Shown piece after piece: positions 22,489 through 64,000 of a DNA stretch of 64,000 nt (positions within the stretch are counted from its first letter, which is position 1; each line of letters opens with the position of its first letter). The DNA is from a virus (Duplodnaviria; Caudoviricetes): the IMG/VR virus record IMGVR_UViG_2671180244_000004, positions 1 through 64,000 of that record; one strand, 5' to 3'. The position numbers and the translations under genes are program-made. Below the pieces are notes generated by a model, which was not told the DNA's origin, did not search any database, and worked only from the letters and a program-made list of their open reading frames with translations.

Positions 22489-22767
22489 TTACTCAACTAT
22501 TACACCTGCCTTTTTAAGCTTATCAATTATTTCTTCAAGCCCCTCTTTAACAATAGAAGACGTTTCATTTTGTATAGTCTCGTATGGGTAAGGTTGGAGA
22601 CAAAGTTCGTCTAAAACATCGATATCACCTTCTGAAGAATCTTTAAAGATTAACAGATTAAAGGTAATATTTTTACTTAACCTTTTGCAGAGATACCAAC
22701 TAACATTCGTGTGATCAGTAAACCCAAGTTCTCTCATCTTAGCTTCTTCTAAAATATTAAACTTCAT
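22489..22767 (-). CDS. Hypothetical protein
   Basis: 92-aa ORF. Confidence 0.7.
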   Translation of the reverse strand: MKFNILEEAKMRELGFTDHTNVSWYLCKRLSKNITFNLLIFKDSSEGDIDVLDELCLQPYPYETIQNETSSIVKEGLEEIIDKLKKAGVIVE

Positions 22768-22793
22768 TGATGAATCTCCATTCCACTTTAGGC

Positions 22794-22832
22794 TTATGCT
22801 CCGTGACCAAAACCATATAATTTAACTGGCAT
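22794..22832 (-). CDS. 12-aa mini-gene MPVKLYGFGHGA (arbitrium-like C-terminus)
   Basis: AAAGAGGTGA RBS, then ATG CCA GTT AAA TTA TAT GGT TTT GGT CAC GGA GCA TAA; fills the intergenic gap. Confidence 0.7.
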   Translation of the reverse strand: MPVKLYGFGHGA

Positions 22833-22860
22833 AACCATTCACCTCTTTAGAAAGCTTTAT

Positions 22861-23301
22861 TTAACTGAGTGTCTGTTTAATAAATTCAATCAATTCGTCA
22901 ACATCTTTCTCGGTTGCCTTTTCATTAATGATGAAGAAATCAGCCATAACATACTTAGAGTAATCGCCATCTCCATAATATTCATCAGCTACTGTAACTT
23001 TTAAATCAATGTTGTCGGTAATAGGGATTAAGTGATTGTCTGTTCCACTTGATAAAGGAAAATCAAGTTGATAGATATCTAAGTTCTTTTCTATGATGAA
23101 GTTGTTCACAGATTCAAGGACATCTTCTGCCTGATCTTCATTAAAGCTGCCAGTATAACCAGGCATTTGCTTTCTGAAATAATCACTTAATTGTTCATTT
23201 AGCTCGGTTCGTTTTCTTTCAACAAGATTATTCATTGAAACGAGCAAACCTTTTTCAGTAGCCTCTCTAATAAGCATCCAATCTGATTTTTTTAATTTCA
23301 T
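22861..23301 (-). CDS. Hypothetical protein
   Basis: 146-aa ORF. Confidence 0.75.
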   Translation of the reverse strand: MKLKKSDWMLIREATEKGLLVSMNNLVERKRTELNEQLSDYFRKQMPGYTGSFNEDQAEDVLESVNNFIIEKNLDIYQLDFPLSSGTDNHLIPITDNIDLKVTVADEYYGDGDYSKYVMADFFIINEKATEKDVDELIEFIKQTLS

Positions 23302-54960: not shown

Positions 54961-55043
54961 ATAGCACACCTCTTCTAAAACAAAAATAACAAACATATTA
55001 TCTTAAATCAATTTATAGTCGCAAAATTAATCTAAATGTAAAC

Positions 55044-56126
55044 TTACCTCACAAATTCTAGGAACTTTTGCATAGTTCCCCTATCTGACTTACGAAAAAA
55101 ATTGACAAAATCCTCTTTTGTGGCACTTTCAATCAATGAAAAATCCAATTCTTTATCCATCAATATACCCGCAGAATTTTCAATATTGTCGTTTTTAGTT
55201 AAATATCTCAATGGAGTCTTAGGATCTTTATGATTCCCCTGAGCCATAGCAATTCGTATATCATTGCCAGACTCTTCATATGCTATATCTATCCCAACTC
55301 CCTTTAAAGAGTGAGGTTTAAGGTTTCTTGATACAGGTATTCCTAACCTACTCAGAGCTCTGTTGAACGATTCTCTATAAGATCTCGATGTCAATCCATT
55401 AAACACTAAATCATTATCCATGCTGTTTTGTTTTCTTAATTGATCCAATTCAATCAAAAAGTTCTTATGAAGGCCAGTAGAAACTACATATGAACCCTTG
55501 TTCAATGCCTCAACTTTATATAAATCACCGTCAACTAGCTTAATGTCCATCCATCTAACAGTAAGTGCATACTCAATCCTAAATGAAGTACGGATTAAAA
55601 ATTTAGTAAGAAGTTTTTTCTTTAAACCGTTTTCCCGCTCTAGCAACATATTTTCAGCAATTCTTTCAGCTTCAGTTTGAGTAGTCTTACCATAGTTATT
55701 ACTGACTTCTTTTAATTTCTTTGTTTGATCAAACTGGCTTAAATCTATATAGGAAGTATAAGCTTTAAATGACTTTAGGAATTTATACAATCCCTTAACA
55801 GAAACTAGCTTACGATTGATTGACGTGTTAGCTAAGCCTTCTTCTTTTAAATGTTTTCTGTAGTTGATCAAATCCATAGAATTTATTTCGATATCCTTTG
55901 GAGTTAAAAACTCTATTCCTACAGTCGGTTTAAAGTAATTAAAGAATTGTTTAATGTCACCATAATAATTAACTGCTGTATTAGTCTCAAACATGTGGTG
56001 TCTGCGCTGCGTTTTAGAAAAATTATTTAGATTACCAACTGAACCCTCATCATCAATCTTTTTTAGATATGTCATGACATCGTTATAAACAGTGTATTCC
56101 TTTAATGGAACTGCTTTAGTACTCAT
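55044..56126 (-). CDS. yopP: Tyrosine recombinase SroD/YopP
   Basis: SAM-like N-terminal domain; TSFR, HSLK, GNH...LRY. Confidence 0.85.
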   Translation of the reverse strand: MSTKAVPLKEYTVYNDVMTYLKKIDDEGSVGNLNNFSKTQRRHHMFETNTAVNYYGDIKQFFNYFKPTVGIEFLTPKDIEINSMDLINYRKHLKEEGLANTSINRKLVSVKGLYKFLKSFKAYTSYIDLSQFDQTKKLKEVSNNYGKTTQTEAERIAENMLLERENGLKKKLLTKFLIRTSFRIEYALTVRWMDIKLVDGDLYKVEALNKGSYVVSTGLHKNFLIELDQLRKQNSMDNDLVFNGLTSRSYRESFNRALSRLGIPVSRNLKPHSLKGVGIDIAYEESGNDIRIAMAQGNHKDPKTPLRYLTKNDNIENSAGILMDKELDFSLIESATKEDFVNFFRKSDRGTMQKFLEFVR

Positions 56127-56139
56127 CTCTTCCCCTCCT

Positions 56140-56328
56140 TCACATTAATTCTTCAATTGTTGAATTGAGAACAATCGCTATTTTTGCCATTTCGATTAGC
56201 TTAGCCTCTTCAGGATTAGCTATAATTTGTTCTAGTCTTTTCACTGAAATACCTGATTCAGCACATACACTATTTATAGTTTTGTTCGATTGATCTATAA
56301 TATTTAGTAAGTTATTAGGCACTGGCAC
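56140..56328 (-). CDS. yopO: SroC/YopO HTH protein
   Basis: Xre-like HTH; operon position. Confidence 0.75.
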   Translation of the reverse strand: MPVPNNLLNIIDQSNKTINSVCAESGISVKRLEQIIANPEEAKLIEMAKIAIVLNSTIEELM

Positions 56329-56380
56329 ATCTCCTTCGAATGCTTATGTATCTTAGATGCCCTGGCCATTGGTGGTAATT

Positions 56381-56689
56381 TTATGTAGTGATAAAGTATT
56401 CAAATTCATACTCAACAGATTTGCGAAGTTCATTTATGAATTCCATTCTCTTACGGTAGGCTGTGAGAAGATCTCCAGTGTAAGTGTTTGTCAATACGGT
56501 TTGATTAAAAGAAAACTCATCTATTTGTTTTAAATACTCAAATACAGCTTGTTTAACCTTATATAGTTCAACTGGTGAATTAATTGATAAACTTAGGCTG
56601 CGTAAATATGTAAGTTCTTCTTTTAAGCTGTTGATTATTTCGTATTGATACTCAATGTCCGCACAGCTTTTTTCTGGTGATGCAATCAC
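56381..56689 (-). CDS. yopN: SroB/YopN
   Basis: Synteny and size. Confidence 0.65.
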   Translation of the reverse strand: MIASPEKSCADIEYQYEIINSLKEELTYLRSLSLSINSPVELYKVKQAVFEYLKQIDEFSFNQTVLTNTYTGDLLTAYRKRMEFINELRKSVEYEFEYFITT

Positions 56690-56701
56690 TGGCCTTACCT
56701 C

Positions 56702-56887
56702 CTAACTATTCAATAATTTCATATATCCAGAAATCATCGATTTTCTAATTTGTTCTTTTTTGATTTCTTTATCTATGTTATTTTTGTTTTCTTGGTGATT
56801 AAACCATTCTCCCCCGAACTGATCTATCTTACGAGCATAAACAGTTTTATTAAAATTTATAACATTGTCTTTTCTAGCAGCTAACAT
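56702..56887 (-). CDS. yopM: SroA/YopM
   Basis: Synteny and size; strong RBS. Confidence 0.65.
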   Translation of the reverse strand: MLAARKDNVINFNKTVYARKIDQFGGEWFNHQENKNNIDKEIKKEQIRKSMISGYMKLLNS

Positions 56888-56929
56888 AGTTCTCCTCCTA
56901 AATTACATATTTCCGTATGTCTTATTTAT

Positions 56930-56958
56930 AGTTTAATGGATAAAAAACTATATGTAAA
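56930..56958 (-). promoter_or_regulatory. sigA promoter of the sro operon
   Basis: TTTACA-17bp-TAAACT. Confidence 0.6.
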
Positions 56959-57052
56959 GCTTTTTTCACGACAAATAGCACATTTTTATAATGTGCTCTT
57001 CGTGTTACCACTTTTCAAAAAAAAGGTTTTTGTAATACCTAGAAGAAATAAC

Positions 57053-57085
57053 AAAAAGACGTCAACTCGTTTGAGTTAAACGTCT
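57053..57085 (-). terminator. Terminator after aimP
   Basis: AGACGTTTAACTC-AAAC-GAGTTGACGTCT-TTTT. Confidence 0.8.
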
Positions 57086-57124
57086 AATTATGTAACGCAA
57101 TCCTAACATTATTAACCAATAAAA

Positions 57125-57247
57125 TCAACCTCCGTTACCAATTGCAGCTGTCTCAACTGGATGGTCTGCTTCTTGCTCATTAGCTCCCTGATGATTACCT
57201 GCGATAAAAGATAACACAATAACTAAACCAAATACGATCTTTTTCAT
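57125..57247 (-). CDS. aimP: Arbitrium pre-pro-peptide; predicted mature AIGNGG
   Basis: Own translation MKKIVFGLVIVLSFIAGNHQGANEQEADHPVETAAIGNGG; signal peptide; directly after aimR. Confidence 0.92.
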   Translation of the reverse strand: MKKIVFGLVIVLSFIAGNHQGANEQEADHPVETAAIGNGG

Positions 57248-57279
57248 TTCTTCACCCCCTTTCACCTATCGAATGTTAA

Positions 57280-58437
57280 TTAAATTGCTATTAATTCTAA
57301 AAGGTCATTGTCTAAACCTTTTTCTTTTAACTTTATAAGAGGTAAGTTTATCGAAAATTTATCACCTGTTTTCTTGAAGTGTTTAATTGAACTAAAATAA
57401 GAGTTCACATCATCATTACATAGACCTTTCAAAAAAAATAAATGCGCTTTTTCATAATCGCTAATACTTATTTTATCTAGTTGATCAATTAAAGTACTTG
57501 CTTTTTCTTTATTTCCAATGACTAAATTATGAAATATGACTTCCTGGATATCGGTAGCCTCAGTCGAATATTCATTCACAAACCTATTCTCTTTAACTCC
57601 CCAGATATTTTCAAGTGCACAAAGACTTCTTACCATCTCAGTTCTAAATGGACTATCTTCTTCGGTAAGGCTCAAACCTTTGTAATAATGTTCCTTAGCA
57701 AGTTGGTAATTTTCAAAAATATAAGAGTTCCCTAAGTGCAATTGTGCAAATATCTTGAATCTGTCCACTGTAGCTGTTTCAAAAGCTAATTTTGCATTTT
57801 CTCTAGCTTCAATTGTATTGTTTTGGCTTACATTGCTACTAGCTTTCATTATGAGGATCCTGCAAGTATAAGAATCCTTAACAAAACCTGCTGGAATCAT
57901 ATCAACATCTAGAATTCCGACAATCTCCTTCATTAATCCAAATTCACCATTTAGACACGTTGGATATAACAGCATCAAATTTCTGAATACAGTCATTTCT
58001 ATACTTTTTGTCTTAATTGAACTCAAATTGTTTTGCGCTTGGATGTAATTTATTTTATTTACTTGTAAATCTTTGTGAACATCATAAATTTCAGCCCACT
58101 CTTTACTAAGTGAGTTTCTTGAAGCCTTCATTACTTCTATTAGCATATCTCTTTCTTTGTTAATTTTATTAACATCAAGATATTCCAATCCTTGTCTTGC
58201 ACATGATTTATTTGGATCTAAGGTCATTATGTATTCTGACATGTAGAGGAGTTCTTCATTAGGGGCAATTAATCTAACCATATCAATAACACCTTGGAGA
58301 TTGTCCATTTCTTTTTCTGGCGAATTCAGAAATCTGTATAGTCCAGATCTTTGCGCATAGCCAGCCGCTTGAGCAAGCTTTAATGCCAACGCTTGATCTT
58401 CTTCACATTTGTTTTTAATAAAAGTTTTTAAATTCAT
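57280..58437 (-). CDS. aimR: Arbitrium receptor (RRNPP family, HTH + TPR)
   Basis: 385 aa; ARQGLEY, HLGNSYIF, SIKHFKKTGDKF..LP...L..G. Confidence 0.93.
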   Translation of the reverse strand: MNLKTFIKNKCEEDQALALKLAQAAGYAQRSGLYRFLNSPEKEMDNLQGVIDMVRLIAPNEELLYMSEYIMTLDPNKSCARQGLEYLDVNKINKERDMLIEVMKASRNSLSKEWAEIYDVHKDLQVNKINYIQAQNNLSSIKTKSIEMTVFRNLMLLYPTCLNGEFGLMKEIVGILDVDMIPAGFVKDSYTCRILIMKASSNVSQNNTIEARENAKLAFETATVDRFKIFAQLHLGNSYIFENYQLAKEHYYKGLSLTEEDSPFRTEMVRSLCALENIWGVKENRFVNEYSTEATDIQEVIFHNLVIGNKEKASTLIDQLDKISISDYEKAHLFFLKGLCNDDVNSYFSSIKHFKKTGDKFSINLPLIKLKEKGLDNDLLELIAI

Positions 58438-58464
58438 TTTTACCCCCCTTGCTACTCTATATAT

Positions 58465-58493
58465 AATTTACTATGAATGGAGAATTAAGTCAA
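58465..58493 (-). promoter_or_regulatory. sigA promoter of aimR
   Basis: TTGACT-17bp-TAAATT. Confidence 0.7.
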
Positions 58494-58592
58494 CACATTT
58501 TATTTGTTATTTGCATTTTAATAGATTGCTATTTACAATTTTTCCGAAAACCATGTAGTATTATATAAAAGGGTTTATAAGGAGATTATATT

Positions 58593-58760
58593 ATGATGTT
58601 AGAAGAAATTGATTTAGACAAGATTTACGACATACGAGAATACCCTGATAAAAACAGTGGTCGCTGCGACAATTGTGATACAGCGCAATTTAAATCGACT
58701 ATATCTAAAGGTGAATTTATACGCAAATGCGCCAAATGTGGGATGAAAAAGAGGGTTTAA
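58593..58760 (+). CDS. 55-aa zinc-ribbon protein divergent from aimR
   Basis: Own translation MMLEEIDLDKIYDIREYPDKNSGRCDNCDTAQFKSTISKGEFIRKCAKCGMKKRV; AAGGAG RBS. Confidence 0.75.
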   Translation: MMLEEIDLDKIYDIREYPDKNSGRCDNCDTAQFKSTISKGEFIRKCAKCGMKKRV

Positions 58761-58766
58761 CCCCTC
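58746..58766 (-). terminator. Terminator after the peptide mini-genes
   Basis: GAGGG-GTTAAA-CCCTC-TTTTT on the minus strand. Confidence 0.6.
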
Positions 58767-58775
58767 CCTCCACTC

Positions 58776-58802
58776 TTATCCTCCTGGACGAATATCAGCC
58801 AT
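58776..58802 (-). CDS. 8-aa mini-gene MADIRPGG (arbitrium-like; alternative start 58817 gives MGGELMADIRPGG)
   Basis: GGGAGGTGA RBS, ATG GCT GAT ATT CGT CCA GGA GGA TAA. Confidence 0.7.
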   Translation of the reverse strand: MADIRPGG

Positions 58803-58821
58803 AAGCTCACCTCCCATACTA

Positions 58822-58854
58822 TTAGCCTCCTACTTTAATTGCTTCAACAATCAT
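58822..58854 (-). CDS. 10-aa mini-gene MIVEAIKVGG (arbitrium-like)
   Basis: AGAAGGTGA RBS, ATG ATT GTT GAA GCA ATT AAA GTA GGA GGC TAA TAG. Confidence 0.65.
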   Translation of the reverse strand: MIVEAIKVGG

Positions 58855-59128
58855 TTTCAATCACCTTCTAAATGAAATACTTCTTTTATTTAAATTGTTT
58901 ACTCACCTCTTAAAATATGTATCTTCACCTAAAACAAGTTACATTAGTATGATTCTAATTCAAGTAGTGAATGTGACTGTTTCATAAACCACAGAAATTT
59001 TATCATCTTTGCTTAATTTCTGTTACACAATGAAACCCGTGTTGTCAAAAATTTCTCTGTATTTTAGGATTGTGGATGACATAATGTTTACAATTAAGTT
59101 CATTTGTACGCTTTTCTGCTAACGAGTT

Positions 59129-59440
59129 TTACCATTGCATTGACTCTACCGAACAAATAACATATACATGTGTAGTTGTGAATATGGAGCGTACATATTG
59201 TGCTTCACTATATTGACTTATTTCAACAAGTTCATCTAATGCATAGGGATTAAGTCGATTATATCTAATGATAGCAGTAATTTTTTCAAAGGTGTATTCA
59301 ATCGTTCTATCGTAAAAAACTTTAATTTCATTAATCATTTCATTTATTTCTTTTTCTTCATTAAAAATCTCTAGTTTTAATTCATCAGCTTCATCTGATT
59401 CATTTAATTCATTATAAATTTTCATTTTTAATTCAATCAT
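59129..59440 (-). CDS. Hypothetical protein
   Basis: 103-aa ORF. Confidence 0.65.
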   Translation of the reverse strand: MIELKMKIYNELNESDEADELKLEIFNEEKEINEMINEIKVFYDRTIEYTFEKITAIIRYNRLNPYALDELVEISQYSEAQYVRSIFTTTHVYVICSVESMQW

Positions 59441-59455
59441 TTCTCTTATCCCCTT

Positions 59456-59902
59456 TGTCCGATGCCTTATTGCACCTGCGACATTTTATATGTATGTATT
59501 AAACTAGATGCAACCTCCCCTTTGAAGGGGAACGCTCTATGCTTAATGCGGTTTAAAGTCGCCTAGACGACTTATAGACTGATAACACTAACAGGATTTT
59601 CCCAGTCACATGCTTCTGATTCATCTTCTAAGTTTTCGAAATCAACCACGCTGATTTCCCATTCGATCGTGTATTCCTCGTTCATCTTATCTACAGCATG
59701 AGCTGTGTAATGAGTTCCGTCGTTATTCACATGTGGATTTTGGGTTGTTCTGTACTCTTTCCCTTCAAATACTACGATTGTAGAGTTATTGTGGTTAAGG
59801 TCTTGGAATTTCATTTTGATTACCCCTTATGCCCGACACCTTGTTGTGCCTGCGACATTTTTTATGTAAGTGTTTAACTAGATACAAACTCCCCGTTGAA
59901 GG
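59456..59902 (-). repeat. Two 73-bp direct repeats (59456-59528, 59830-59902): promoter plus leader hairpin
   Basis: Gap-free alignment; each copy precedes a gene; compensatory stem changes. Confidence 0.85.
59572..59814 (-). CDS. Hypothetical acidic protein
   Basis: 80-aa ORF, DESEACDWENP. Confidence 0.75.
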   Translation of the reverse strand: MKFQDLNHNNSTIVVFEGKEYRTTQNPHVNNDGTHYTAHAVDKMNEEYTIEWEISVVDFENLEDESEACDWENPVSVISL

Positions 59903-59936
59903 CTACCTGCTTTCAGTTCACTTTAAAAGAATGATT

Positions 59937-60386
59937 TTATTTGATAATTTCATTGGTGTAACTAACACTATACTCATCAATGTCTGACGTTTCAATGTTA
60001 CCAGCAAAGTCTCCAAGTTCCTCATTTACTTGCTGCAGATAAACCTCGTCTTCTTGTGTTAGCATTTCTCTAGCTATATATGTATCAGTTAAAGCATGGC
60101 TGCCTATTCCATCTTTTACACTGAACAATAGACATTGTTTCAATTCAGTACCATCTTTTAATAATACATCTACCAAAACAACTCCATTAGGCTTTAATTC
60201 ATCAATTTCATTTTGCCGTATATCTATTGCCTCTTGAAGTACGCAAGAAACTGTATTGCTTTTACTAGCCCTTAATGCGAATTCAAGCTCTTTAATTTCT
60301 CTTAATTTTTCTTGGATTTCATTTATCAATTCAATCTCTCCTAAAGTCAGATTTATCAATATAAACAGCGTCTTTAATGTCGTCAT
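59937..60386 (-). CDS. Hypothetical protein
   Basis: ORF; start probably about 60330. Confidence 0.7.
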   Translation of the reverse strand: MTTLKTLFILINLTLGEIELINEIQEKLREIKELEFALRASKSNTVSCVLQEAIDIRQNEIDELKPNGVVLVDVLLKDGTELKQCLLFSVKDGIGSHALTDTYIAREMLTQEDEVYLQQVNEELGDFAGNIETSDIDEYSVSYTNEIIK

Positions 60387-60564
60387 AATGCTCTGCGTTC
60401 ATGACTTTATAAATATCAATACCAAGTTTATTTTCCAATTCACTTTTAGCATTTAGAACAATCATATTGTCCGCATTTATGCCATTTCTCATTTGGGGCA
60501 CACGTGCATCTGTTTTAATTTCCACGCCTTCTATAGTAAAAGTTACCTTAACTGTATTGTTCAT
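60331..60564 (-). CDS. Hypothetical protein
   Basis: 77-aa ORF with RBS. Confidence 0.7.
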   Translation of the reverse strand: MNNTVKVTFTIEGVEIKTDARVPQMRNGINADNMIVLNAKSELENKLGIDIYKVMNAEHYDDIKDAVYIDKSDFRRD

Positions 60565-61148
60565 AATAATCTCTCCTTGGTTTTCTTTTATTTTCCTTTA
60601 TCTATGTTTTTATTATAGCACAGCACATCCTAATCAACAACAATAATATATGTAATTTGTATTTTATTTTTTCTGGAATTCTAAAGAAAAAAGGAGCATT
60701 AGCTCATGGTTTACATTAAAAACATCATTTTATTTTGTCTGTAATCAATCATAAAGCACGTTACAGGATGCAACACGCTTTAAAAAGGTCTTTCCTTTAT
60801 GTTCTCAAGCTCAGTAATTTAATTTGTTGTTTAAGTATTCCTCTACGCTGCCACCAAAGCCTTTATACCCTTCTTCAAGTTCATCTAATATTTGCTCTTG
60901 ATCTGCCCAACCTTTAAACATAAAGTGCATGTTTGGTTTTGAAAATTCTTTTTTAATTATATCTCGCATATCTTACACCTCTTATATATGTAATTTATAA
61001 TTCATCCAGAATAAACAAATGCACAAAGCAACATTATGGCCAATACGCTAAATACTGCAATATTGATTAAATCATCTCGCCTCTTTAATAACCGCTCCTG
61101 GATTGTTTTCAACATCTTCACTCCTTATAGTATATGTTATTTATTTGT

Positions 61149-61454
61149 TTAAAACTCATGTTTTATCTTATTTTCATTCAAACGTATTATTTCTTCTGAT
61201 CCCTTTTTTTTAACTTTTATTACTCCGCCCCACATAGGTATATAAGGCATTCCATCTTCATATCGAATATTGTATCGATAATGTAATACAACACTTCCTG
61301 TTGCCAAATTCACTAATATCCACCTGCTGTCATCCCAGCTATGGTATTCGCCTTTTTCATTGTAGCTGCCTTGACTTATTTTATTTTCGACAACCATACA
61401 TTCTTGACCGTCTTTGAATACAAGAATATCTCCTTTGTTTGCGATACTAATCAT
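61149..61454 (-). CDS. Hypothetical protein
   Basis: 101-aa ORF. Confidence 0.65.
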   Translation of the reverse strand: MISIANKGDILVFKDGQECMVVENKISQGSYNEKGEYHSWDDSRWILVNLATGSVVLHYRYNIRYEDGMPYIPMWGGVIKVKKKGSEEIIRLNENKIKHEF

Positions 61455-61509
61455 CCCCCTTTATTAAAAACAATTCCATTATGTATAAAAGAAACATTTT
61501 ATTTAACTT

Positions 61510-61755
61510 TCACTTTTCAAATTCATCAAGATCGATTCCATAAATGCTTTTAATCCAATCCTTGATTGTAAAATCCCACCCCCCAAGAAAACCATTCCAC
61601 GCTAGAACATCTCTAAACACTTCTGATTTGGACATTTCTAGAATTTCTTTATCCATGGAAGCGTCTTTTTTATCTAATCCCTCTCTTTGTCTTACATACT
61701 GAATAATGCTATTTGGATACTTTTCTTCTAACAGTTTTGTGTAATCCATTATCAT
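61510..61755 (-). CDS. Hypothetical protein
   Basis: 81-aa ORF between palindromes 61485 and 61772. Confidence 0.7.
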   Translation of the reverse strand: MIMDYTKLLEEKYPNSIIQYVRQREGLDKKDASMDKEILEMSKSEVFRDVLAWNGFLGGWDFTIKDWIKSIYGIDLDEFEK

Positions 61756-61777
61756 TTTCCTCTCCTTATGTAGAAAA

Positions 61778-61984
61778 TCAACATTTTATTTCAAATACAT
61801 TTTCATCTTCCATCATTCGTTCATTTAAAAACTCTAACCCATGACTCATTATTTCTTCATCAGTTAAAGTTCTGGGGTCAATCGATGCTCCGTTTGTTTC
61901 TTTATATGTTTTTTTAAGATATTCTTTACCATACTCCAACAATGTATAGGTTCTTTCATCCACTGAATACTTTCTTTCTCTCAT
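61778..61984 (-). CDS. Hypothetical protein
   Basis: 68-aa ORF. Confidence 0.65.
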   Translation of the reverse strand: MRERKYSVDERTYTLLEYGKEYLKKTYKETNGASIDPRTLTDEEIMSHGLEFLNERMMEDENVFEIKC

Positions 61985-62037
61985 TTTTTACAACCCTTTC
62001 TGCATAAAATTAAAAGAGAGTTCTAAGCATCTCCTAT

Positions 62038-62247
62038 TTAACAGCAGTCGCAATCACTCTCTGGCTCCTCACATTCTTCGCATATTTTTTCTATATGAAA
62101 GCCCATAAAAGTGAACCAAGGATAACAATAATACACCTTTTCACAGTGACTACATTTTACGATCCCAGAGCTGTCTTTATCCATATTTTCGTTGACTTCT
62201 TTTTTGTTGCAGTATGGGCATATCTGCACTTTCTTCAAATCTTCCAT
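62038..62247 (-). CDS. Small Cys-rich zinc-finger protein
   Basis: CPYC, CSHC, CEEC. Confidence 0.7.
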   Translation of the reverse strand: MEDLKKVQICPYCNKKEVNENMDKDSSGIVKCSHCEKVYYCYPWFTFMGFHIEKICEECEEPESDCDCC

Positions 62248-62308
62248 TTCATATTTCCTCCTTATATTATGGTCTGAATAAAATTAGAAAATTAATGTTT
62301 TATCCAGA

Positions 62309-62635
62309 CTATAATGCTTGTCTTGCCAATGTAATTAATTTTTTTAAATCGTTCACCGAAATGTTCACTTCATCTTCATTGCAGTAGTCATTTAATTCTA
62401 TAGATAAATCGCTTAAACCCTTTTCACTTATATTAATAATTTTCTTCTGAGTATCCTGTATCACCAAATCTGATTCATAAAACCATACAACTTTTGAGAC
62501 CCCTTCTATCTCCACTCCGACATTGGATGTTCTATCAGAAAATTTCTTAACAATGCCATTGTTACCAGAATAGCAGTCATTTGAATTAATTAAGACTTTA
62601 TCATTTATGTTCATATCGTCATTTCCTTTCTGCAT
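62309..62635 (-). CDS. Hypothetical SH3/KOW-like protein
   Basis: ORF between palindromes 62286 and 62634. Confidence 0.65.
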   Translation of the reverse strand: MQKGNDDMNINDKVLINSNDCYSGNNGIVKKFSDRTSNVGVEIEGVSKVVWFYESDLVIQDTQKKIINISEKGLSDLSIELNDYCNEDEVNISVNDLKKLITLARQAL

Positions 62636-62693
62636 AAAATTAGAATTTTATTTAATGTGAAGTAGTCCAACCTCCAACTTCACACTAAAACAG

Positions 62694-62978
62694 TTATTCT
62701 GATGATCCGTTAAACCAGTTAAAAAATGCTTTTGCTGGAATACGGTATACCGTGCCAATCTTATGTGCTGGGAACAATCCTTTTTTTACAAGATCGTATG
62801 CTTGTCTCTTTCCAATGCCCATATAATTCTGAATATCTTTTACTTCAAGTGCTTTCTTCTCAAGAATGCCTGTCAACGAATCCTTTTCCCCCACTTCTGT
62901 TTCACCTGTTATATAATTGCCACACATTTCACATTTAATTTTCTCCATTAAGAATTCTCCTCCGTTTAAAATATTCAT
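62694..62978 (-). CDS. Excisionase-type HTH DNA-binding protein
   Basis: LEVKDIQNYMGIGKRQAYDLVKKGLFPAHKIG...RIP. Confidence 0.8.
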   Translation of the reverse strand: MNILNGGEFLMEKIKCEMCGNYITGETEVGEKDSLTGILEKKALEVKDIQNYMGIGKRQAYDLVKKGLFPAHKIGTVYRIPAKAFFNWFNGSSE

Positions 62979-63004
62979 TTTATTTCGTTCTTTTCTACAT
63001 CTTT

Positions 63005-63033
63005 ATTATATATGTTATTTGTATATTAATCAA
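63005..63033 (-). promoter_or_regulatory. sigA promoter with SPBRE-like spacer
   Basis: TTGATT-17bp(ACAAATAACATA)-TATAAT. Confidence 0.8.
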
Positions 63034-63269
63034 TACTTTTTATATGTTATTTTTAATTTATTTGAGTATTTTATTACGTCCTATGAGGGGTTTGGGGTGG
63101 TGTAGGACGAAAGGGCAATTCAACTTGTTGAAGTGACCAAAGTCAGCACCCCAAGGTCTTATTTTCAGTCTATATATTATTTATAATTTTAACTTCTTTT
63201 CTTTTACGAGAGACCCCCTAATAACCCTTGTGGCTGTTGAGTTTTTAAAATGATTTATTGCTTTTGTTT

Positions 63270-64000
63270 TCATAGGTCATTTTCTAACCACTCGATTAAT
63301 AGACGTCTCATTCTAAATGATGGGATGTAAATGTTGATTGATTTGTTATTCCTTATTGCTGATCTCCATATCCATTGAATCATCTCTGATAATGCGTAAA
63401 TGTCTTGATCTATATTTATGTTATTCTGCTTAAAGAAATCATTAATAGCTGGATTAACAAATCTGTTGATTGAATAAACTAATGATTTCTTGTGACTGTA
63501 TTCATTAGTCGCTTTAATATTACACGCTAAGAATCCTTTAGTGTATCCTTTACCGCTCAACTTCCCTTTATGAGATTTAAAGGTTGTCCATAGGTTCTCA
63601 TTTGATTTAGACTTTATGATATTTTGGTAATAGTTTAAGATGTTGTTTTTTAACCGCTTATGTAACACTGTTCTACTTTCAAACCAATTTTTAGACAATG
63701 CGTAATAGTCGTCACCTACCTTGTTCAGATCTCCTTCGTAAATCTTTATCTTATTCTTCAAAGCAGCTTTAACCTTTTGGTCTAGGGATTCATTATGTTT
63801 AATTAATTTATAATTTTTACTTTCTTTTATGACTGATAACAATTCATATTCAATACCGTGTAAGTCAAAATAATACTTTTGAATCTGAGCATTAAACAAA
63901 TATGTTAACACGTACACCTCGTTAAACTTAGCAAAGACATCGCTAGGGAATTCCCAGAACAAAACAGATTCATTGTGATAGATTAGATTATCACTTTTGG
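63270..64000 (-). CDS. 3' part of a helicase-like putative replication/origin-binding protein (truncated by the window)
   Basis: LTYLF..Q, N.KATNEY, SEMIQWIWRSAIR, YIPS.RMR. Confidence 0.6.
   Translation of the reverse strand, partial: KSDNLIYHNESVLFWEFPSDVFAKFNEVYVLTYLFNAQIQKYYFDLHGIEYELLSVIKESKNYKLIKHNESLDQKVKAALKNKIKIYEGDLNKVGDDYYALSKNWFESRTVLHKRLKNNILNYYQNIIKSKSNENLWTTFKSHKGKLSGKGYTKGFLACNIKATNEYSHKKSLVYSINRFVNPAINDFFKQNNINIDQDIYALSEMIQWIWRSAIRNNKSINIYIPSFRMRRLLIEWLENDL

Follow-up and report, generated by a model that had tools for sequence, protein, structure and literature searches.

Tandem mini-genes of SPbeta-like phages as candidate leaderless forgeries of rival arbitrium signals

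Two tandem mini-genes upstream of an arbitrium receptor gene, aimR, are probably leaderless forgeries of rival phages' arbitrium signals that push those rivals into dormancy. We found them in a 64,000-nucleotide stretch of viral DNA (the window), positions 1 to 64,000 of the 133,201-bp IMG/VR virus record IMGVR_UViG_2671180244_000004. By sequence, their products are exact copies of signals of one rival family. Each mini-gene would consist of a start Met, few or no filler residues and the rival's mature signal, and the rivals would be KLEB27-1-like phages of the Bacillus pumilus group, whose signals come in two or more dialects (AIKVGG/EIKVGG and ADIRPGG). The mini-genes and their immediate signals are listed here, with Shine-Dalgarno (SD) energies computed as pairing with the 16S 3' end.

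58854..58822, minus strand: mini-gene 1, encoding MIVEAIKVGG and a stop (ATG ATT GTT GAA GCA ATT AAA GTA GGA GGC TAA)
58867..58861, minus strand: ribosome-binding site (RBS) of mini-gene 1, AAGGTGA, 6 nucleotides (nt) 5' of the ATG; SD:anti-SD energy -11.5 kcal/mol
58802..58776, minus strand: mini-gene 2, encoding MADIRPGG and a stop (ATG GCT GAT ATT CGT CCA GGA GGA TAA)
58815..58807, minus strand: RBS of mini-gene 2, GGGAGGTGA, 4 nt 5' of the ATG; SD:anti-SD energy -16.1 kcal/mol
58766..58746, minus strand: terminator-like hairpin, GAGGG-GTTAAA-CCCTC followed by TTTTT, 3' of the mini-genes and closing their transcript
58868..58896, minus strand: 5' edge of the conserved block, where homology with every relative begins; the genes upstream differ

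The products are 10 and 8 residues in all, largely polar and without a hydrophobic leader or signal sequence. The hairpin stem lies 9 nt past the stop of mini-gene 2, and a simple scan of 57000-59600 called no other terminator-like site. The preliminary description of this DNA had proposed exactly this arrangement, two signal-less minus-strand open reading frames (ORFs) with well-spaced RBSs and then a terminator, and the sequence and SD energies bear it out. It also placed the pair just upstream of aimR. They are indeed upstream, 339 nt from the aimR start; the opposite-strand gene of 55 amino acids (aa) that lies between had been overlooked.

Natural counterparts of the mini-gene products

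The end of mini-gene 1 recurs as a natural signal beside an AimR-family receptor. The AimR Pfam model PF22871, run against 49 genomes of the genus, gave 33 matches in 23 genomes (30 loci), and we read the natural signal of each from the small ORF adjoining the receptor. Clade-2 signals such as SAIRGA, GMPRGA, GFGRGA and SASRGA, among others, were present. Three of the 30 loci encode a 391-aa receptor whose signal-peptide-bearing pro-peptides end in ...QTSAIKVGG (L046) or ...VSEIKVGG (L038, L039), and all seven IMG/VR relatives of this receptor have such pro-peptides, five ending AIKVGG and two EIKVGG. The receptor passes the AimR model with 84.5 bits (cut-off 26.7) and shares only 19% identity with the window's AimR. 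In the AIKVGG prophage L051, a polymerase, a helicase and a primase beside the receptor mark the sequence as phage DNA. The natural AIKVGG gene and mini-gene 1 share six codons, with three wobble differences, and their flanking DNA is unrelated. One allele of mini-gene 1, in L012, reads EIKVGG, which is also a natural variant.

Mini-gene 2 has its counterpart in phage vB_BauS_KLEB27-1 (OM654379.1). There, gp50 is 50% identical by tblastn to the receptor associated with ELRPGG, and an unannotated pro-peptide ORF that overlaps the end of gp50 (L144 1576-1758) ends ...YKTADIRPGG. After its Met, mini-gene 2 equals the last seven residues of this pro-peptide, with two wobble differences. Identity between the mini-gene products and the natural pro-peptides, which belong to other phages infecting the same host group, ends at exactly 6 or 7 residues. 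The preliminary description had suggested that x-I-[KR]-P-G-G peptides exist in other arbitrium clades, and this proved right: ADIRPGG occurs in KLEB27-1, and ELRPGG was found as well. It had also named a lack of natural AimP peptides with these C-termini as grounds for giving up the idea; AIKVGG/EIKVGG and ADIRPGG are all natural.

Other searches for a natural DIRPGG returned near matches (DVRPGM, DVRPGV and ELRPGG). A pattern search of 91 genomes found DIRPGG in the mini-genes themselves (G025/G026) and in one out-of-frame match within a 342-aa gene, with four matches for the reversed-pattern control. Among relatives of the 365-372-aa receptors, DIRPGG was absent from 34 IMG/VR and 4 metagenome loci, which showed DVRPGM, DVRPGV and seven other endings. 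The DVRPGM pro-peptide occurs in four protein clusters, all ending DVRPGM, and all four relatives of the ELRPGG receptor end in ELRPGG. The 365-372-aa AimR-like receptors belong to 35-41-kb prophages (L062-L095 in IMG/VR, L029-L036) with signals of the form [DE]-[VI]-[KRI]-[VP]-G-[MAV]; nine distinct endings occur among 34 loci, TEIRVGM 11 times. Unannotated pro-peptides ending ...AINAIGG are present in phages phi18-2 and 268TH002.

KLEB27-1-like phages swap arbitrium modules, judging from sequence comparison. The DNA polymerases of L051 and KLEB27-1 are 96.2% identical, and their receptors are 27% identical and their signals differ. Because the polymerases are nearly identical while receptors and signals diverge, a single rival family has at least two signal dialects, and the tandem mini-genes copy both.

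The mini-gene pair is more than chance. Among 155 mini-ORFs of the 133-kb genome (6-15 aa, SD energy of -8 or below), Gly-Gly ends occur at these two stop sites only, and one other ends in Gly-Ala. We compared mini-ORFs with a catalogue of 26 natural hexapeptides, counting a C-terminal end within one mismatch as a match and using 50 shuffled catalogues as the control. In the window genome, 2 of 651 mini-ORFs (6-25 aa, SD energy of -6 or below) match the catalogue, against a shuffled mean of 0.02. Three sister proviruses gave 1 of 632, 1 of 572 and 1 of 479, and shuffled means across all these genomes ranged from 0.02 to 0.08. This search of short RBS-bearing ORFs against natural AimP ends had been suggested beforehand as a check, and its result stands above the shuffled catalogues in the window genome and the sister proviruses. 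The second catalogue match of the window genome is a third mini-gene.

22832..22794, minus strand: third mini-gene, MPVKLYGFGHGA, with a strong SD, between two operon genes

It ends in GFGHGA, one residue from the natural GFGRGA. Its region (22650-23000) has no counterpart in sister proviruses G001-G004.

Conservation and distribution of the mini-genes

Relatives of the block were reached by three routes: contigs of four sequencing runs over 58000-59500 (X1, X4, X5 and X6 among them), the relatives' contigs giving no coverage of 58918-59500; IMG/VR proviruses L004, L005 and L006, found through the 55-aa protein; and prophages L012 and L013 from the 49 genomes of the genus, at 82% and 81% DNA identity. 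The mini-gene alignment comprises six sequences, namely the window, L004, L005, L006, L012 and L013. Both mini-ORFs are present in all five aligned relatives and in the run contigs. They are missing beside a more distant homologue of the 55-aa gene (L007, 60% aa identity) and beside the phi3T copy of that gene, phi3T_82; the window's AimR is about 40% identical to that of phi3T. Blastn of 58400-59200 against deposited phages gave no match. Exact-pattern scans of IMG/VR returned nothing for one stretch and three already known contigs for another, a protein-collection search for AimP returned the window's own cluster alone, and an AimR-based scan of genome contigs returned only L003, a different element without the mini-ORFs.

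The alignment supports codon-level constraint on the mini-ORFs, which are very probably translated genes. Neither mini-ORF contains a gap in any of the six sequences, and the spacers have indels: +1 and -2 between the mini-ORFs, and 1, 4 or 9 missing bases between the mini-gene 2 stop and the hairpin, so that the stop abuts the stem in L012 and L013. Mini-gene 1 occurs as MIVEAIKVGG, MNLEAIKVGG, MIIEAIKVGG (twice), (TTG)IIGEIKVGG and (TTG)IIEAIKVGG. All six sequences preserve its frame, its stop and a start codon (ATG or TTG), IKVGG is invariant, and all four synonyms (GGC, GGT, GGG, GGA) are used for the final Gly codon. Mini-gene 2 reads MADIRPGG five times and MTDIRPGG once (A2T, L012), with DIRPGG invariant despite three synonymous changes. 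The stop codon changes from TAA to TGA once. Over the last five codons of both mini-ORFs, variable sites number 0/10, 0/10 and 6/10 at codon positions 1, 2 and 3 (Fisher p=3.5e-4), and all six third-position changes are synonymous. The preliminary description had proposed to look for synonymous-only variation and for a conserved frame, RBS and stop; these last five codons show it (6/10 third against 0/20 first and second positions), with a weaker bias over the whole ORFs.

The signals around the mini-ORFs are kept too. The RBS of mini-gene 1 retains an SD-like string in six of six sequences (GATGGTGA or GGAGGTGG in L012 and L013). That of mini-gene 2 retains its GGAGG core in six of six, within a spacer that has indels and substitutions, and all relatives preserve the hairpin stem, even though the loop changes and indels precede it. 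In the X4/X5 contigs, mini-gene 2 is unchanged and mini-gene 1 differs by one synonymous change and one V>I, while the 19-nt spacer has six substitutions and one insertion. Two other frames were rejected. A GTG frame at 58773 that runs through the hairpin as a third ORF is frameshifted in X4/X5 and deleted in L012/L013, and a longer start for mini-gene 2, the ATG at 58817 (MGGELMADIRPGG), is lost in X4/X5, L005, L006, L012 and L013.

Phage phi3T carries a pair with the same layout, distant from its aimR.

KY030782.1 89240-89293 (L127 1741-1794), plus strand: phi3T pair, Met+INIIGG and Met+EVRVGG, in the unannotated gap between phi3T_132 and phi3T_133

The first ORF reads GTG ATT AAT ATT ATT GGA GGA TGA and the second, six bases on, ATG GAA GTT AGA ... 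GGA GGC TGA. Both encode Met followed by six residues, and the second has its SD in the Gly-Gly codons of the first. The region is found in 20 Spbetavirus records, 9 identical and 11 at 85-89% identity, SPBc2 not being one of them. Eight aligned records (phi3T and 7 of the 11 divergent ones) show three synonymous changes and one E>G. In the sample examined, the nearest natural signals, each one residue off, are INAIGG (phi18-2, 268TH002, L037) and EVRVGM; a pattern search for EVRVGG found only a phi3T-like prophage and one chance match, EVSVGG. On visual inspection, the pair has an invariant TGnTATAAT on its 5' side and a 9-bp hairpin on its 3' side, neither of which the simple scan called. 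The hairpin is paired in 93.1% of cells, with covariation not beyond shuffles, and RNAalifold chose another structure for the region, without a compensatory pair.

The mini-gene block is the first conserved sequence past a variable accessory island, because the relatives diverge upstream of it and each has a different gene there. In X1, X4 and X6, likeness to the window stops at 58896 and gives way to one common other sequence; X5 likewise aligns as far as 58896. In L004, L005, L006, L012 and L013 the likeness is lost upstream of ATAAAAGAAG..., at a point some ten bases closer to the first RBS. Their upstream genes encode 350 aa (L004), 187 (L005), 209 (L006), 354 (L012) and 206 (L013), and two of these products have PIN_12 and Schlafen AlbA_2 domains. 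In L015, positions 379-400 correspond to the opening 22 bases of the conserved block; an accessory-gene remnant precedes them and insertion-sequence-like ORFs follow, and the mini-genes appear to have been lost there. Further upstream in the window, a full-length match to the Pistol ribozyme (RF02679; 63.6 bits, gathering score 34.5; E 1.9e-10) lies at 59509-59572 on the minus strand, between ORFs of 80 and 103 aa. The mini-genes themselves have no Rfam match.

Downstream of the block lie three further genes.

58593..58760, plus strand: 55-aa CxxC..CxxC gene, convergent with the mini-genes on one side and divergent from aimR on the other
57280..58437, minus strand (as the mini-genes): aimR, downstream of the mini-genes
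57125..57265, minus strand (as the mini-genes): aimP, downstream of aimR, a 46-aa secreted-type precursor ending AIGNGG

The 55-aa gene is real, because all 17 of its substitutions in X4 fall on third codon positions. Its stop codon lies inside the terminator-like hairpin. The product is hydrophilic, has two CxxC pairs and matches no Pfam family. Homologues were found by tblastn in 29 phage records (28 Bacillus phages and one Microcystis phage), many at sites without an annotated feature, and its protein homologues are present in Spbetavirus records and IMG/VR. As far as shown, the gene is a travelling neighbour of the mini-gene block and not part of the mechanism.

Weighing the forgery reading and its alternatives

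The forged signals would act inside the cell. Since the products lack a signal sequence, they would most likely be made and kept in the cytoplasm of the carrier cell. In that compartment they would bind the AimR-family receptor of the rival, perhaps once trimmed at the N-terminus, and switch it off regardless of how dense the phages really are. A rival that superinfects would then lysogenise instead of killing the cell, and a co-resident rival prophage would be kept from inducing, for example while the SPbeta-like phage is itself induced. Both outcomes follow established arbitrium logic, in which the peptide-bound receptor is switched off. Manley et al. (10.1101/2025.10.13.681967) and a second study (Cell 2026, PMC13220667) describe AimP as secreted, processed and re-imported, with peptide-bound AimR ceasing to drive a lysis-promoting gene; added or foreign peptides raise lysogeny and lower induction, and manipulation of a rival by secreted non-cognate AimP is shown experimentally. 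In our data, rival prophages share an IMG/VR record-name prefix with two carriers (L004 with L061, L005 with L063), which suggests that rival and carrier can reside together. No KLEB27-1-type receptor was seen among the window ORFs at 55000-64000, the part of the genome searched for one.

Several observations weigh against forgery. Only by analogy with AimP are the last six residues taken to be the mature natural signal, and the sole basis for non-secretion is the missing signal sequence. The products carry Met and 0-4 extra residues before the signal, which AimR-type pockets would have to tolerate unless they are trimmed off. The only carrier with a same-prefix IKVGG-type rival differs from it by one residue (AIKVGG in L004, EIKVGG in L061). 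Promoter-like sites near the block are not enriched (15, against 13.0 +/- 3.5 in shuffles), and the conserved block begins just 20-30 nt or so 5' of the first RBS, so any promoter would lie in the variable upstream DNA. Over whole mini-ORFs the codon-position bias is weaker (2/16, 3/16 and 7/16). Only about seven distinct alleles are available and they are related to one another, so the conservation statistics rest on few events. In the sample examined, the phi3T peptides and the GFGHGA of the third mini-gene have natural counterparts at one mismatch only. We lean slightly towards the broader proposal that temperate Bacillus phages keep cassettes of such leaderless forged signals, one per rival dialect, which would silence competitors' lysis switches intracellularly.

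The peptides could instead be public signals, exported without a Sec signal and taken up by neighbours, so that the rival's signal is broadcast. Leaderless Rgg/ComR pheromones are exported by a route that needs no Sec signal, and identity to natural secreted signals fits broadcasting as well as it fits private use. We consider this unlikely: the peptides are 8-10 residues long with no hydrophobic leader, the window ORF list holds no exporter gene beside the mini-genes, and we know of no exported pheromone gene of 7-10 codons. Broadcast manipulation by a non-cognate AimP is nonetheless documented (10.1101/2025.10.13.681967).

Nor does binding with a different outcome seem at all probable, be it to the rival receptors or to some other target (the Opp permease, for instance, or a host RRNPP receptor); the peptides would then antagonise the rival's signal or modulate how the host behaves. 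An N-terminal extension of Met and up to four residues could turn an agonist into a blocker, and the phi3T peptides are one residue off their nearest natural signals. Against this stand a hexapeptide and a heptapeptide identical to natural signals, as an agonist copy needs, and no evidence points toward any other target.

Very little speaks for leader or arrest peptides, in which a ribosome paused at the Gly-Gly stop would control termination and thereby whether transcripts run on, antisense to the 55-aa gene and into aimR. The nearness of the mini-gene 2 stop to the stem, 9 nt in the window and abutting in L012/L013, would suit such a switch, as would conservation that is strongest at the C-terminus. 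However, the stop-stem distance varies by 9 nt, and the RNA fold of the region (z = -0.96) offers no alternative structure, the terminator hairpin alone standing out. In addition, aimR, the next same-strand gene, has its own promoter-like site at 58493..58465, the phi3T pair lies elsewhere, far from aimR, and exact identity to two signals of one rival family would be left unexplained.

It is similarly far-fetched that the mini-ORFs are not genes but SD-like GGAGG strings clustered by chance, an element acting as RNA (antisense to the 3' region of the 55-aa mRNA) or decayed aimP relics. A mere cluster of SD-like strings was the first rival idea, because both Gly-Gly ends, spelled GGAGGnTAA, resemble an RBS; the region holds five such strings, and the block travels with the convergent 55-aa gene. 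In L012 and L013, however, GGAGG has become GGTGG in both mini-ORFs and Gly-Gly is retained, so the conserved feature is Gly-Gly and not the SD-like string. The codon periodicity of variation, a separate SD and start for each mini-ORF, flanking DNA unlike that of natural aimP-like genes and catalogue matches far above shuffled controls also argue for genes.

We give almost no credence to the suggestion, made in the preliminary description, that the mini-genes tune the phage's own AimR, to which the A-I-x-x-G-G shared by AIKVGG and the window's AIGNGG had seemed to point: both peptides are kept in carriers whose own signals are AIGNGG (window), SASRGA (L002/L006, L004, L005, L017) or DPGRGG (L016), including one whose AimR (L002) is 42% identical to the window's, so the mini-genes do not covary with the resident AimP and the likeness is a coincidence of one phage.

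If the forgery reading is right, it matters beyond this phage. Communication between viruses has its textbook example in arbitrium, and similar secreted peptides have recently been shown to mislead phages. Counterfeiting a competitor's signal privately inside the cell, with neither an export signal nor a receptor of one's own, would be a new tactic, and could help to explain why arbitrium dialects diversify. Prophage accessory regions would gain a further role, in competition or in something akin to defence. Working genes of bacteria and phages could then be no longer than Met and six residues, and annotation pipelines would be overlooking functional genes of 7-10 codons. Since KLEB27-1 is a cultured phage and phi3T has a comparable pair, the claim is testable by ordinary phage genetics. 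A full-text literature search found no published description of leaderless arbitrium mini-genes; it covered article text, and supplementary tables may include AIKVGG or ADIRPGG among natural signals.

Relation to known systems

The mini-genes are AimP-like in their last residues and unlike aimP as genes. Their C-terminal residues equal the signal of an AimR-family receptor (the mature form by analogy). They do not lie directly downstream of a cognate aimR, and they do not encode a 40-80-aa pro-peptide with an N-terminal secretion signal. The window's own AimR-AimP system (clade 2, SPbeta/phi3T type) shares with them the format of a short peptide ending G-G or G-A and the same genome region; its AimP, in contrast, is a secreted-type precursor downstream of aimR, with which the mini-genes do not covary. 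The AimP-type pro-peptides of KLEB27-1-like phages (KLEB27-1, prophages L046/L051 and L055-L061) are identical to the mini-gene products in the last 6-7 residues. Those natural genes encode 42-48 aa with a hydrophobic N-terminal signal and directly follow the receptor, whereas the mini-genes have 8-10 codons, no signal and a tandem arrangement.

Two other kinds of small gene differ from the mini-genes. Leaderless RRNPP pheromones of the SHP/XIP type are hydrophobic, 17-35 aa long and encoded beside an Rgg/ComR receptor; the mini-gene peptides are 8-10 aa and largely polar, and the adjacent AimR has another cognate peptide. Type I toxin-antitoxin systems pair a convergent small gene with an antisense RNA and make a small hydrophobic membrane toxin, unlike the hydrophilic convergent 55-aa product with its two CxxC pairs.

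Intracellular and rival-directed peptides both have precedents. Lazazzera, Solomon and Grossman (Cell 1997) reportedly had a mature Phr pentapeptide made inside B. subtilis, engineered to prove intracellular action. That construct was likewise Met plus a mature peptide acting on a cytoplasmic RRNPP receptor; the mini-genes are natural and, if they are forgeries, aimed at a competitor. Published arbitrium cross-talk (10.1101/2025.10.13.681967; PMC13220667) likewise has one phage's peptide push another toward lysogeny and less induction. There the emitting phage uses its own AimP, which is secreted and meets a similar receptor, whereas the mini-genes would be dedicated leaderless copies directed at an unrelated receptor clade (19-27% identity), whose signal is of no use to the carrier itself.

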